From: a phage
Direction: 5' to 3' (one strand)
NCBI GenBank assembly: GCA_020857175.1
Contig: GCA_020857175.1_3048.1
Length of the DNA stretch: 64,000 nucleotides
The position numbers were made by a program, and so were the translations under genes. This document shows positions 36,717-47,630 of this stretch, piece after piece. Under the pieces are notes generated by a model. That model was not told where the DNA came from, did not search any database, and was given only the letters and a program-made list of their open reading frames with translations. The first letter of the stretch is position 1, and every line of letters starts with the position of its first letter.

Positions 36717-36746
36717 ATTATACCACATCCTTGTGGTAAAGTAAAC
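36717..36746 (-). promoter_or_regulatory. T4-type early promoter
   Basis: Minus strand GTTTAC (36746..36741), 18-nt spacer, TGGTATAAT (36722..36717). Confidence 0.5.
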
Positions 36747-38563
36747 TACTGGCTCATCCATTCTTTACGAAGGTCAGCATTATCTCCCATGAGCATTTCA
36801 AAAAGCTCTTTCCAGTTCTCAGGAAGTTTAACAACATCATATACTGGGTTTTGAATCATCTCACGATATTCAGATTTTTCCAAAGAGCCAAGTCCTTTAA
36901 TATAACGGATGCTATGTTTAGGTAGAGCATCTTTAGCACTCTCATATTCAGCGACTGTATAAAACCATTCTTGTTTTTTACCGACCTGAGCGATGATTAC
37001 AGGAGTTTTGACAAAGCGAATTCTTCCTTGTTCAAACAGTTCTGGCCAATTACTAAAAAATCCGAGCAGAGAAGGATAAATGCTTCCTAAACCATCATGG
37101 TCAGCATCGGTCATAATAGCAATATTATGATAATTCAAGTTTTCAGCTTTTTCACCAAGAACTAATCCAGTGATTGCGCAAATATCAAACAGTTCTTTGT
37201 TTTTAAGCATATCAGCATATGACATACCCCAACTGTTGAGAACTTTACCGCGCAATGGATAACCACCATGAAGTTCTTTATCACGAACATCAATAAGATA
37301 TCCGATAGCAGAATCACCCTCAGTCAAGAAAAGAGTAGTGTCAGCATCTTTACCGCAAAGATTCGCTTTGATATGTTTATGAACCTTAGCTTTAGAAGCC
37401 TTTTTAGCTGCTTTAGTTTCTGCTGCTTTTTCTGCTGCTAATTTACGTGCTAAAGCAGCTTCAATAATCGGCATTAAAATTGCTTCATTATTTAGAATAG
37501 CGCGTGAAATCTTTTTAGCATCAAGTTGAATATGACTACGAATTTCACCAAAAGGAGAAGTAAGTCGTTCTTTAGTTTGAGAATCAAATCGCATGTTTTT
37601 CATATCACGAACAAACATAACGATAGTCAAACATTCTTTAACGCGCGCTTTAGTTACATCAATTTTGAACTTACGTTTGATTTGTGGAATAAGGTCTTCA
37701 CAAATATCATCCATAACACAGTCAATGTGATGGCCACCATTCTTAGTGTGAATGTTATTGACGTATGTTAATTGACGAAAACCATCCGGTGAACGACCAA
37801 CCGCAATAGAACAATTTTCTTGTTCTTGAACAATAGCATGCTCATCATATTGGCGTGCATATTTCTTAAAATTGCCCTGAACCTTTTTACCATTAAAGGT
37901 AAATTGAATATCAGGATAAACTACTGCAAGTGTCTGGAGACGATCTAGTGTAATGTCAAGATAAACTTGGGACAGCTCATTAGTTTCAAATGACATAAAA
38001 TCAGGAATGAAAGTAACACGAGTTCCTTTCCATTTTCCAGGAATAGTTTCCCACGATTTATTTTCCATGCCATTTGAACAACGAACTACAATATTATTTT
38101 GACCATCACCAGTTTCACCGACAAACATCACAGAAAAAATGTTTGTCAAACTAGAACCAACACCATTCATACCGCCAGTGACGCGTTCTTTATCATCACC
38201 GAAGTTACCACCTGCTTTTGGAATAGTCCATGCAGCAACAGGACCAGGAATTTCTTCACCGGTAGGTGTTTTAACCATTGCCTGTGGAATACCGCGACCG
38301 TTATCTTCAACTGTTACCTGATTATTTTTAATGGTAACATTAATTTTATTTGCGAATTTAAACTTAGTACGAATACCTTCATCGACTGAGTTATCGATAA
38401 TTTCATCAATAAGCTTAACAAGACCAGGTACATACTGAACACTTTCCCATTTACCAAACAGAAAGCGCTCATGCATTTCATTAGCAGAAGAGCCAATGTA
38501 CATGCCACTACGCTTTTTGATATGTTCAATATCGCTCAGAATTTTAATTTCATTCTTAATCAT
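36746..38563 (-). CDS. 39: DNA topoisomerase II large subunit, fused gp39+gp60 form (605 aa), no bypass element
   Basis: From ATG 38563: MIKNEIKILSDIEHIKKRSGMYIGS... (GyrB-like ATPase + Toprim) continuing into the gp60-equivalent C-terminus in one frame. Confidence 0.9.
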   Translation of the reverse strand: MIKNEIKILSDIEHIKKRSGMYIGSSANEMHERFLFGKWESVQYVPGLVKLIDEIIDNSVDEGIRTKFKFANKINVTIKNNQVTVEDNGRGIPQAMVKTPTGEEIPGPVAAWTIPKAGGNFGDDKERVTGGMNGVGSSLTNIFSVMFVGETGDGQNNIVVRCSNGMENKSWETIPGKWKGTRVTFIPDFMSFETNELSQVYLDITLDRLQTLAVVYPDIQFTFNGKKVQGNFKKYARQYDEHAIVQEQENCSIAVGRSPDGFRQLTYVNNIHTKNGGHHIDCVMDDICEDLIPQIKRKFKIDVTKARVKECLTIVMFVRDMKNMRFDSQTKERLTSPFGEIRSHIQLDAKKISRAILNNEAILMPIIEAALARKLAAEKAAETKAAKKASKAKVHKHIKANLCGKDADTTLFLTEGDSAIGYLIDVRDKELHGGYPLRGKVLNSWGMSYADMLKNKELFDICAITGLVLGEKAENLNYHNIAIMTDADHDGLGSIYPSLLGFFSNWPELFEQGRIRFVKTPVIIAQVGKKQEWFYTVAEYESAKDALPKHSIRYIKGLGSLEKSEYREMIQNPVYDVVKLPENWKELFEMLMGDNADLRKEWMSQ

Positions 38564-38590
38564 CACTTATCCTCGTTTGGTTTCGGGAAT

Positions 38591-43909: not shown

Positions 43910-45229
43910 TCACACATAAAACACATCATAACGACCACGTGTTACACCAACGTAAAGAAGTTGTTGAGCTAATTCAGCATCTGCATAATGAATACAAGGC
44001 GTATAAATGAAAGCACGGTCTACAGACATACCCTGAGCTTTATGGAATGTTGATGCAGGAAGTGCTTTCACTTTACTGAACTGTGATTTAGCATCCCAAA
44101 AATCACTCCATGGAGCTTTTCCGCCTTTGTTCCAATTTTTATAAGTTTCTGCCGTTTTACCTAAAAATAGGTTAAACTTATATAGCTCTTCATCAGATGA
44201 AATTATTTTAATCTTTTCACGATAATATTCATCATCGCCATAAGTTTCTACTGTTAAATCCCAATGACGAATTAAGTATTCTCCAGGAACACCACGAGCT
44301 TTAACAAATGATGATGTATACTCTGCTTCTATAATACGAACTAATTGTCCGTTATTAAAAATAATTTCTGACACAGGCTTTCCATCAATTTTATATGTTT
44401 TAATTAATGGTTCCTGCATTACAATAATTTCACCGACAATAAAATCTTTATCAGTTTCAAAAATCTTTTTACGAATAATGCTATTTAACTTGTCAACAGA
44501 TTTATTCGTAAATGCCATTACGCGATTTTCAAACAAATCATCTAGTGATTTGACGATTGAAAAATAATTTACCATAAAATCACGTAAAGCTGCATCACCA
44601 GTAAATCCACGTACTCCATGCCCGTCAACAACTTTATCATAAATCCACTTACCGTTGCGAACATCAGTAGCTACATCAATAATAGGAGCATTACTGCGTT
44701 TAACTTCAGTAAGTTCACACTGATAAAAATCTTTGTGTGTAAAGAATGGACTGATATAAGCAGTATTTTCTCCTGGATCAACAGGTCTAATTTGCTTATT
44801 ATCACCTATTCCAATTATAGTACACCAAGGTGGAATAGTTGAAAGCAGAATTTTAAATAGCTTTCTATCATACATTGACACTTCGTCGCAGATTAATACC
44901 CTGCATTTAGCTAAATCTGGTACTTCCTTCTGTTCAAAAAGAACGTTTTCTTCATACGTAACTGGGTTAATTTTAAGAATACTGTGAATAGTACTCGCTT
45001 CTTTCCCCGACAGTTTTGAAAGAATCTTTTTAGCTGCATGTGTAGGAGCTGCCAAAATGATACCAGTTTCGCCTGTTGATATTAAAGCTTCAATGATGAA
45101 CTTAGTAAGAGTAGTCTTACCAGTACCAGCAGGTCCATTAATAGTTACATGATGTTTCTTTTCTTTAATAGCCCTCATAACGATGTTAAAGGCATTTTTC
45201 TGGCCTTCGGTCAAATCATCAAATGTCAT
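43910..45229 (-). CDS. dda: Dda SF1B DNA helicase, 439 aa
   Basis: Walker A GPAGTGKTT, DEVSM Walker B; 439 aa as T4 Dda. Confidence 0.95.
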   Translation of the reverse strand: MTFDDLTEGQKNAFNIVMRAIKEKKHHVTINGPAGTGKTTLTKFIIEALISTGETGIILAAPTHAAKKILSKLSGKEASTIHSILKINPVTYEENVLFEQKEVPDLAKCRVLICDEVSMYDRKLFKILLSTIPPWCTIIGIGDNKQIRPVDPGENTAYISPFFTHKDFYQCELTEVKRSNAPIIDVATDVRNGKWIYDKVVDGHGVRGFTGDAALRDFMVNYFSIVKSLDDLFENRVMAFTNKSVDKLNSIIRKKIFETDKDFIVGEIIVMQEPLIKTYKIDGKPVSEIIFNNGQLVRIIEAEYTSSFVKARGVPGEYLIRHWDLTVETYGDDEYYREKIKIISSDEELYKFNLFLGKTAETYKNWNKGGKAPWSDFWDAKSQFSKVKALPASTFHKAQGMSVDRAFIYTPCIHYADAELAQQLLYVGVTRGRYDVFYV

Positions 45230-45537
45230 CGTAAATTCCCTGCAATTGGTATACTAACAATACGCCCAGTATCTAAAATTCGCTGATATAATCTTTGTGT
45301 GTCTACGTCAGGCTTAACATGTTTAACTTCTATTTTATTAAACCAAAACTTGCGTGGAGTTTCAACTAATCTTGGAATTCCCTTACCTAAAGCTAATCGA
45401 TACTGCTCTTTAAGAGTAGTAAATACTTTATCAGCAATATTCCATTCAAAAAATACAGCAGGACGATGTTCATCAAGCGGAACTGGCGCCGTAAATCCGT
45501 CTTTGTCTCGGTAAACTATCGCATATACATAAACCAT
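45226..45537 (-). CDS. hypothetical protein, 103 aa (dda.1-like)
   Basis: ATG start; stop overlaps dda start. Confidence 0.5.
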   Translation of the reverse strand: MVYVYAIVYRDKDGFTAPVPLDEHRPAVFFEWNIADKVFTTLKEQYRLALGKGIPRLVETPRKFWFNKIEVKHVKPDVDTQRLYQRILDTGRIVSIPIAGNLR

Positions 45538-45538
45538 A

Positions 45539-46285
45539 TTATCCTCGGATAAGTTTAAAAATTGAACAATTTAGCGGATATCCTCTTTTCAGTTTAAGTT
45601 TATCAATAAAAGACAAGTTTTGATACCGCTCTACACCTTGAATAATTTTATCACACATATCATATTGCATTTCTGCCTCTGACAACTTTTTCACAATTTT
45701 CCAATCCGAGCCTTTAAGAAGAACGTTCAATTTAACAACTTCAGCGCCTTCTGCTATGTGAGAACCATCAATACGAGCTTTAAGTGCTATAATCCTTAGC
45801 TTAATGTCAGAGGTCTGTTTTGATTTAGAAAGCTGAGAAATGTGTTCAATTCGGTTTTCACGTTTTTTCTGTATAGCTTTAATTTGATTATAAGTCTTTT
45901 TGATTTTAGCCCATTTCTTTTCATCTAAATTTAGTTTATGAACTTTTTTCGCAGATGAACGACCAATTCGCAAAGCAAATAAATCACGCTTTTCAATCAA
46001 CTCCTCTAAAGTATAATCAGAACGAAATGTATTATACTTTTTCTTTACTGCAATAACATTCCCTTTAATGTATCCAACGTTATTATCAAAACGTTCTAAT
46101 GATAATTTCTCTCCTTCAATACGATTATCAAAAGGTTCTCCTGAATAGGCACAAACTTTTTGTTCTAAAATATTCTTAATATAATTGAAGTCTAAGTTAA
46201 AATCTTTAGAACGTCTTTTTGCAGATGCCTGAGTATGCTCTAGACGACGTTTAATTTTACGAATTTGGTTATTAGACAGCTTCAT
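45539..46285 (-). CDS. Srd-like protein (positional equivalent of T4 srd), 248 aa, with degenerate HNH-like N-terminal motif
   Basis: Position between dda.1 and modA; N-terminus CAYSGEPF...LSLERFDNNVGYIKGNVIAV resembles small HNH endonuclease motifs but lacks the zinc-binding Cys pairs. Confidence 0.5.
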   Translation of the reverse strand: MKLSNNQIRKIKRRLEHTQASAKRRSKDFNLDFNYIKNILEQKVCAYSGEPFDNRIEGEKLSLERFDNNVGYIKGNVIAVKKKYNTFRSDYTLEELIEKRDLFALRIGRSSAKKVHKLNLDEKKWAKIKKTYNQIKAIQKKRENRIEHISQLSKSKQTSDIKLRIIALKARIDGSHIAEGAEVVKLNVLLKGSDWKIVKKLSEAEMQYDMCDKIIQGVERYQNLSFIDKLKLKRGYPLNCSIFKLIRG

Positions 46286-46408
46286 ATTTTTCTCACATCT
46301 TACGGACGGTTAACTACTTATACTATAACATTTTTACCTTAACTTGTAAACAACTTTATGTAAAAATGCTTTAAAACTTTCATGGTATAATGAATCTAAG
46401 TCCTTCCA

Positions 46409-47011
46409 TTATAGATTAAATCCTTCAAAATCAAGAGTATAGATAGTGTATGTTGAATACTTTTTGTACTCATATCTATCTGCAATTCTAAATACACTTC
46501 CAGCTGGTATCATTACTTCTTGTTCATCTGAAACTAATTCCATATTACGATAACGATGGCTATCCGGAAACTTAAAGTTTGGATTGTATTCTTTACAACG
46601 TAGAGCTTTTATAGCATACTCCTGGAAATTGAATACCATAGGAGCTTTGAATTCAAAAATAACTTGTGTGTTATACTCTAAACCGGAAGCAAAATGTAGA
46701 GCTATATTTTTATCATATGAAGCTGATACGACTTTATCAAATGTAATAATATCAATTCCTTGATTTAATACTTGCTTAGTCTCAGCTGGAACACCTCTCC
46801 AAAGAGGTTTATCGTTTGGTTCCAAACGAGATTTGATTATTTCATTTAACCAAGTATGGTCATCTGGTTTATTAGTAATACAATGAATTAAAAGTTCAAT
46901 TTCAGATAAATTAAACCCTTCAGAAAGTAATTCTTCACGAATAGAAGCACGCACCGATGCATCCATTGATTTTATTTTAAAATCTTTTAGTTGCATTACT
47001 GAGTATTTCAT
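46409..47011 (-). CDS. modA: ADP-ribosyltransferase ModA, 200 aa
   Basis: R (LWRG), S-x-S (SAS), E-x-E (EQEVMIP) ART signature; 200 aa as T4 ModA. Confidence 0.8.
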   Translation of the reverse strand: MKYSVMQLKDFKIKSMDASVRASIREELLSEGFNLSEIELLIHCITNKPDDHTWLNEIIKSRLEPNDKPLWRGVPAETKQVLNQGIDIITFDKVVSASYDKNIALHFASGLEYNTQVIFEFKAPMVFNFQEYAIKALRCKEYNPNFKFPDSHRYRNMELVSDEQEVMIPAGSVFRIADRYEYKKYSTYTIYTLDFEGFNL

Positions 47012-47630
47012 TCAACTACCTCAATATCATAAACTTTAAATGTTCCAAATGAATCGTGTAATTTTTCTTTTGAAATAGAAGTTATTCTATACTTTCCAAT
47101 TGGAATCATCCATTCTTGTTCACGCACAATCATCATTAAGTTATCAGTACGCTCTGAATCTAGCCCATCAGTATCTTCATACGTGTACTTAAACTCAGTA
47201 TTAGGAGAAGAAAGTATAATATCGCTGATATGGTCAGAATAATTAAAAGCTTTATCAGTTTTTAAGCGAAATATTATTTCAGTGAAATACTCAACATAAG
47301 AAAAACCACATGCTGTGTGCAAACTAGTAGTAAATGAATCTACCCTATTCGTTGAAAACACTTCTCCAACTTGTAAATCTTTAATGAGTTCTTTTGTCGA
47401 TTTTGATATACCACGATATAACTGATAAGGTGATTTAGTTAAATGCTTTTTAACGATTTTATTCAACTGCCGATGAAGAGCTTCATTCTTTTTAGCTTCC
47501 ATACATTGCCAAAGAATTGACTGCTCAAAGTCAGTAAATTTTTCACAGACTTTTTATACATATCATATTGAAAATCAACGCTTTCAGCTTTTATAGATAA
47601 CTGTTCAACATCTGCAAGATTAATAATCAT
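47008..47630 (-). pseudogene. modB: ADP-ribosyltransferase ModB, reading frame interrupted by apparent single-base deletion near 47499
   Basis: SD-preceded ATG at 47630 opens a 52-codon frame; the ART-domain ORF (47008..47502; YRG, STS, EQEWMIP) is in another frame with no SD; restoring one G at tgg|gaa gives 207 aa, the T4 ModB length. Confidence 0.5.

Follow-up and report, generated by a model that had tools for sequence, protein, structure and literature searches.

Residues 1-112 of the T4-type phage protein Srd almost certainly form a PacI-type beta-beta-alpha-metal domain of the His-Me finger (HNH) superfamily, as judged from profile comparisons and predicted models. In the first-pass annotation of the gene this domain had been described as a catalytically dead, domesticated HNH domain, but the residues that were lost are ligands of a structural zinc site and the domain is probably not a dead relic, considering the conservation of the catalytic positions in the sequences. 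Neither Srd nor the PacI-type His-Me finger is new. Genes at the srd position, or related ones, are named 'HNH endonuclease' in some database records, and one GenBank record uses 'putative HNH endonuclease' for a Srd homologue; in the literature searched no paper was found that joins Srd with HNH or PacI, or that treats an active site of Srd. The PacI-type assignment takes the place of a wrong functional label and amends the 'dead domain' reading. The protein of T4 is reported to attach to the catalytic, N-terminal half of RNase E (residues 1-598) and to raise the degradation of host mRNA (Qi et al. 2015, as cited in PMC13232886 and PMC4980113), and Srd is among the very few proteins that have been reported to bind and accelerate this half of the enzyme.

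The srd locus and its distribution

The window, i.e. the whole stretch of 64,000 nucleotides that was analyzed (contig GCA_020857175.1_3048.1 of assembly GCA_020857175.1), belongs to a T4-type phage (Tequatrovirus). The gene is flanked by dda.1 (45226..45537) and modA (46409..47011), in the same gene order as in T4, and the features that could be mapped on and around it are collected in Table 1. Alignment with T4 Srd, one of the checks proposed in the first pass, showed 246 of the 248 residues to be identical (99%, two differences), and the protein matches PHROG 1400 'Srd' (phrog_1400) over residues 4-248 with an E value of 4e-108. Phage vB_EcoM_JB75 matches the stretch 45226-47011 at 99.9% identity, and 499 phage records span at least 80% of the same stretch and are near-identical there.

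The domain is present in 1336 phage records. Srd homologues that bear the motif were found in T4-like phages of Escherichia, Klebsiella, Serratia, Cronobacter and Acinetobacter, and the position of srd near dda is fixed in those of Escherichia, Klebsiella, Acinetobacter and other T4-like phages, the Acinetobacter homologue being located a few genes away from dda. The homologue of the Cronobacter phage is shorter (172 aa) and has another gene neighbourhood. Given this broad and conserved presence, srd looks domesticated and not mobile. The proposal of domestication made in the first pass is borne out by the constancy of its locus among T4-like phages of many genera, by a C-terminal domain that is peculiar to Srd-like proteins and by the reported role in host takeover.

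A consensus scan of the region recovered promoter-like sites in a number that is not above chance, so that the site listed in Table 1 is suggestive by its position alone. The record of phage JB75 carries a 'promoter' feature at the matching sequence, and the site would agree with srd having an early promoter to itself.

Table 1. Position of srd, of the promoter-like site ahead of it and of the structural elements of the encoded protein within the window
Feature	Coordinates	Strand	Basis or remark
sigma70-type promoter-like site, TTTACA-17-TATAGT with extended -10 TG	46322..46350	-	consensus scan; 36 nt upstream of the srd ATG
srd coding sequence	45539..46285	-	248 codons and stop; ORF list, phrog_1400, identity with T4
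PacI-type beta-beta-alpha-metal N-terminal domain (predicted), residues 1-112	45950..46285	-	profiles, predicted fold
Two N-terminal helices, residues 5-24 and 33-40, SA.RR.K.FNL motif	46166..46273	-	secondary structure, conservation, hhalign register
C45-A-Y-S48-G49, remnant of first CxxCG zinc knuckle, C45 alone kept	46139..46153	-	aligned to PacI CGYCG
Strand beta-1, residues 61-65 (LSLER), ending in E64-R65	46091..46105	-	DSSP of models; PacI and 4H9D alignments
Omega-loop, residues 66-76, with D67, G71-Y72 and N76	46058..46090	-	PacI alignment
Strand beta-2 (77-81) and core helix (82-90)	46016..46057	-	models and alignments
Helix 93-112 after the beta-beta-alpha core, containing TLEEL	45950..46009	-	predicted model; segment of rpoD similarity
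Helical C-terminal domain, residues 120-248	45542..45928	-	common to Srd-like proteins only

Some further observations concern neighbouring and other genes of the window. The product of dda.1 (minus strand) matches Pfam PF25693, 'Bacteriophage T4-like Y01A protein' (E 2.4e-23), and is called 'antitoxin' in one record. The modB gene is frameshifted relative to T4 around position 47550, where one G fewer follows a run of five A's (AAAAAGG in T4, AAAAAG here), and is represented by ORFs of 55 and 164 aa (47463..47630 and 47008..47502, both on the minus strand) as compared to the 207-aa ModB of T4; the gene may truly be a pseudogene, or the homopolymer may have been misread in sequencing. A single ORF of 606 aa on the minus strand (36746..38566) contains HATPase_c, DNA_gyraseB and TOPRIM_C domains. 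In T4 this topoisomerase subunit is divided between genes 39 and 60 and mobA lies close by, and in the present phage it appears to be unsplit.

Fold of the N-terminal half

Searches of Srd against Pfam, NCBIfam, PADLOC and, with the single sequence, the PDB yielded nothing useful, the Pfam HNH families did not match even at E 10, and four distant phage homologues were likewise without a match in Pfam. Residues 10-98 matched PHROG families described as 'endonuclease' (E 1.4e-18), 'HNH endonuclease' (E 9.6e-17) and 'endonuclease VII' (E 2.3e-7). When a profile of 41 diverse domain copies (profile A2) was searched against all PDB sequences, PacI was the best match (E 0.0017), followed by the canonical Gme HNH 4H9D (E 0.012), whose catalytic His (in 'MDH') was aligned to R65, and more weakly by two Cas9 HNH domains (E ~0.3). 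Three lipocalin matches in the PDB (E 0.05-0.9) were taken as chance. The search of the N-terminal residues that had been suggested in the first pass was in this way successful with the PHROG and PDB profiles, whereas Pfam remained silent. Comparison of profiles by hhalign connected the domain to residues 29-121 of PacI (probability 91.7%, E 7.8e-7). In the predicted models, as analyzed with DSSP, a two-stranded hairpin is followed by a helix and an omega-loop lies between the strands, the arrangement by which a His-Me finger is recognized, and the beta-beta-alpha core that structure prediction was expected to reveal is indeed there; PacI is the nearest solved structure, and N-terminal helices lie ahead of the finger.

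Since the comparisons by profile, by profile-profile alignment and by fold all lead to PacI and other HNH enzymes, the resemblance to HNH enzymes is not due to chance. A mere coincidence of motifs, which the empty Pfam, NCBIfam, PADLOC and single-sequence PDB searches might have indicated, is refuted by the same convergence. The HNH-like motif that was originally noticed at residues 45-52 and 61-80 is real, as the profiles and the predicted fold indicate. The module to which it was likened (CxxCG...DRxD...GY...N...CxxCN) is that of the PacI type, from which the general-base His is normally absent.

PacI is a documented exception within the His-Me finger nucleases in that it operates without a catalytic histidine and employs a Tyr of the omega-loop as base or nucleophile (PMC5714182 and PMC4081073). 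Its single metal is liganded by one Asp and one Asn (PMC4081073), and a catalytic role is ascribed to Arg93, Tyr100 and His42 (PMC13139853). The signature of the enzyme is described as a 'DR' motif followed by a Tyr, together with CxxCN, and zinc is said to be necessary for cleavage (both from PMC11529989).

The residue equivalences between Srd and PacI are based on sequence and profile alignment and on the predicted model. They place L-S-L-E64-R65-F-D-N-N-V-G71-Y72-I-K-G-N76 on L-G-V-D92-R93-S-D-S-F-E-G99-Y100-S-P-Q-N104 of PacI, and K81-K-K-Y84-N85-T-F-R88 on C109-F-I-C112-N113-R-I-K116. In the alignment E64-R65 are the equivalents of D92-R93, and of D-H in canonical HNH enzymes, Y72 is that of the catalytic Tyr100, N76 that of N104 (the structural Asn of HNH), N85 that of the metal ligand N113 and R88 that of K116. 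K81 and Y84 stand where PacI has C109 and C112. The replacement of the second Cys of the first pair by a Ser, reported in the first pass, was found as S48 in the alignment to the CxxC knuckle of PacI. Within the helices ahead of the finger R25 is invariant and K27 is aligned to PacI His42 by hhalign.

The domain thus possesses the two features that characterize the His-Me superfamily, an acidic residue with which strand 1 ends (E/D64) and an Asn or His metal ligand in the core helix (here N85), and in addition the DR-type motif (E64-R65) and the omega-loop Tyr (G71-Y72) of the PacI-like group. A general-base His as in canonical HNH domains is lacking at the end of strand 1, where R65 is found, and so are two further features of the PacI-like group, namely the Cys4 zinc sites (CxxC ... 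CxxCN) and the auxiliary catalytic His (His42), the latter being replaced by K27. PacI (PDB 3LDY/3M7K) has two Cys4 zinc sites, whereas the Srd domain has one cysteine, and the two are 16% identical; moreover, PacI carries His42 and is a stand-alone, homodimeric DNA restriction enzyme of 142 aa, whereas Srd carries K27 and an additional helical domain of 130 aa. PacI cuts DNA as a restriction enzyme, while the role reported for Srd is the stimulation of RNase E. The canonical HNH enzymes (Gme HNH 4H9D, Cas9 HNH, Hpy99I and T4 endonuclease VII) have a general-base His, whereas Srd has R65 and no CxxC pairs.

The boundary with the C-terminal domain lies near residues 112-120. This second domain consists of a long hairpin (helices 122-153 and 159-191), followed by helices 203-222, 226-233 and 242-247, and contains the conserved motif Y..II.GL.RFENLS...K..L..GLPL; fold comparison of the domain gave no specific fold assignment.

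Catalytic residues and zinc ligands across the family

In 28 Srd-like proteins, with 22-71% identity to the window protein, E64, R65, Y72, N76 and N85 are invariant, as are C45, G71, G75 and R25. The family at large was found by exhaustive and profile searches, whereas a word-indexed homologue search with a 105-aa fragment retrieved only 4 fragments. An exhaustive search with residues 1-105 yielded 2353 cluster representatives (at 50% identity), and a query with the family profile yielded 3069 protein matches. Among the 120 of these matches that were listed one had any Pfam domain, and the few that were named were called 'hypothetical protein'. Residues were counted in 214 domain copies, taken from the closest 152 of the 2353 representatives. 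Within this set E/D64 was present in 98%, R65 in 97%, Y72 in 98%, N76 in 99% and N85 in 99% of the copies, and the complete catalytic set in 206 of the 214. The first cysteine, C45 (codon 46151..46153), was found in 98% of the copies and position 48 was Ser or Thr in 74%, but no copy had more than 2 of the 4 zinc cysteines. In Srd, C45 is the sole cysteine of the domain and the other three ligand positions are occupied by S48, K81 and Y84. Position 27 is a nearly invariant Lys in the Srd-like proteins and a Lys, Leu or Ile in the wider family, the register of the helix being less certain here. One protein (P0070) has a His in place of the omega-loop Tyr in both of its domain copies (ER...GH...N...N), a swap of one base for another that fits a catalytic, general-base role of the position.

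Given that nearly all of these copies have the catalytic set and none has the four cysteines, Srd is not a degenerate outlier but is typical of a large branch of the PacI group that lacks the zinc site. It was correctly noted in the first pass that the cysteines after GY..N have been replaced, both zinc cysteines being gone with K81 and Y84 in their place, but this is not a sign of catalytic loss. The conclusion drawn at the time, that the domain is catalytically dead, is unsupported because the lost residues are the structural Cys4 zinc ligands, whereas the catalytic positions are kept down to 22% sequence identity. We consider it rather probable, on the basis of this conservation, that the active site has been kept for metal or phosphate chemistry. 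That Srd itself cleaves nucleic acid in vivo is a more tentative proposition, which the sequences allow but which we would not favour. The invariant residues could also serve the stability of the fold or binding instead of catalysis.

The genomic context of the zinc-less relatives suggests that they behave like nucleases. A 201-aa protein (P0168), whose motif reads C..T, DR, GY, N, N and which lacks a Cys4 site, is encoded in a 1.6-kb insertion between two ORFs that hold complementary parts of a family-B DNA polymerase (PF00136 positions 14-91 and 112-364), the gene and three small ORFs being located between the polymerase halves (L006 2548..6906, and L007). The contigs concerned are of jumbo-phage size (up to 359 kb, the locus having been read from one of 325 kb). 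Because the polymerase gene is split around it, as is classically seen with free-standing homing endonucleases, P0168 looks like a homing-endonuclease insertion. Other relatives are found directly upstream of the DNA polymerase gene (gp79 of Klebsiella phage IME346) and between the neck genes gp13 and gp14 (gp085 of Acidovorax phage ACP17). Tandem copies of the domain are common: among the closest 152 representatives 59 have two copies and one has four (P0019, 852 aa), other multi-domain members including P0143 and P0049. In 56 of these 60 proteins no copy has lost any part of the catalytic set, as would be expected for the cutting of two strands, and they may be single-chain pseudo-dimers that are equivalent to the PacI homodimer.

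In the 2017 classification of His-Me fingers by Jablonska et al. the PacI group ('group 20') comprises about 90 sequences, mostly from giant viruses (PMC5714182). Matches in BFVD included proteins of Pandoravirus and Klosneuvirus, a Medusavirus 'HNH endonuclease' and a Clandestinovirus 'Restriction endonuclease HNH', in agreement with this make-up. The PacI group is far larger than the ~90 members catalogued, comprising a large, Pfam-less and mostly zinc-less phage family. Within the window Srd is the only representative: when the 538 ORFs of 40 aa or more were scanned with the family HMM, Srd alone was recovered, and neither a paralogue of the domain nor a Mob-type HNH relative was found.

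Possible function and competing explanations

The explanation to which we incline holds that Srd is a two-domain early protein, in which residues 1-112 would constitute a PacI-type nuclease domain and residues 120-248 a helical hairpin domain, and that the site in the former is functional. The N-terminal domain would present a working metal- and phosphate-binding site that engages the nucleic-acid backbone and possibly cleaves it, and the C-terminal helices would dock onto the N-terminal half of RNase E or else mediate dimerization. Together the two domains could deliver or prepare host transcripts for RNase E, resulting in a faster RNase E-dependent decay of host mRNA. Three of the parts, namely the functionality of the site, the nature of its substrate and the choice of the domain that binds RNase E, we infer. 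In the work of Qi and co-workers the destabilization of mRNA reportedly needed RNase E, as well as RppH for one substrate, and phage growth is said to have been lower after deletion of srd. This requirement for RNase E and RppH argues against Srd simply cutting those RNAs itself.

A stronger version, in which Srd is an active tyrosine-dependent nuclease or uses the metal site on RNA, such that the stimulation of RNase E depends on the site, seems possible but on balance rather unlikely. Docked on RNase E, Srd could then for instance hold host transcripts (or the cytosine-DNA of the host), distort them or introduce nicks, and pass them on to the enzyme. If so, Srd would be a phage-encoded nuclease subunit of the host degradosome and not a passive activator.

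The main competitor of these readings takes the domain for the remnant of an HNH enzyme, domesticated and without catalytic activity, that solely acts as a nucleic-acid- or protein-binding scaffold within an activator of RNase E. It would explain the loss of the zinc site, with C45 left as the only one of four cysteines, and the presence of K27 instead of PacI His42. This Lys, like the need for zinc described for cleavage by PacI, speaks against activity. The scaffold reading would also be consistent with the known phenotype, which runs via RNase E, and with the literature searched, in which no report on a nuclease activity of Srd was found. Moreover, there are precedents for dead His-Me domains that bind nucleic acids, i.e. 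the MH1 domain of SMAD, which binds DNA, and the C-terminal domain of the yeast Tcd proteins, which binds tRNA. These known examples differ from Srd, however, as they have lost exactly the residues that Srd retains. [quoted passage not shown] SMAD MH1 and Enpp are without both the His and the Tyr (PMC5714182), so that SMAD MH1 is a precedent for a His-Me finger domesticated for nucleic-acid binding in which, unlike in Srd, the Tyr has gone. In Srd the losses are structural, the metal ligands, the Arg and the Tyr being invariant over deep divergence, and equally cysteine-less relatives occur in positions that are like those of homing endonucleases. Considering both sides, we regard the dead scaffold as an unlikely though still serious candidate.

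The occurrence of family members in a split polymerase gene, beside a polymerase gene and between neck genes, together with the intact catalytic set of the Srd-like proteins, could be taken to mean that Srd is itself a free-standing homing endonuclease, i.e. a selfish mobile gene without a function in host takeover. This is very improbable in view of the fixed position near dda across T4-like phages (as described above for the 1336 records with the domain and the 499 near-identical ones), the conserved C-terminal domain, which only Srd-like proteins have in common, and the reported RNase E phenotype of the host.

A functional PacI-type site acting together with RNase E is the explanation we prefer. 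A functional, but not a structural, analogy exists with RapZ, an adaptor of RNase E, since RapZ and Srd are described as being among the few binders of the N-terminal half of RNase E that promote cleavage (PMC13232886). The fold of RapZ is unrelated to that of Srd and it presents one specific sRNA, whereas Srd acts broadly on host mRNAs. The finding that half of Srd is a PacI-type nuclease domain in which the catalytic constellation is preserved offers a concrete alternative to a dead scaffold, and the named targets for point mutation (E64, R65, Y72, N85 and K27) make the question of RNase E activation addressable with mutants.

Most database records name Srd 'anti-sigma factor'. The idea that it is an anti-sigma factor or a decoy of sigma70 or sigmaS can, besides this name and the annotations, be connected to a similarity between residues 89-118 of Srd and residues 569-598 of sigma70 (region 4.2), of which 13 out of 30 are identical (pairwise E 0.008). 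No Pfam sigma domain matches Srd even at E 10, however, and hhalign gave the profile of the Srd family a probability of 0.4% against RpoD, on which ground we rejected the 'similarity with rpoD' as evidence of homology. Such a role is highly improbable, and the label is unsupported, given the lack of profile support and the fact that the rpoD-like segment corresponds to the helix after the beta-beta-alpha core, where T.EEL is also found in members of the nuclease family other than Srd.
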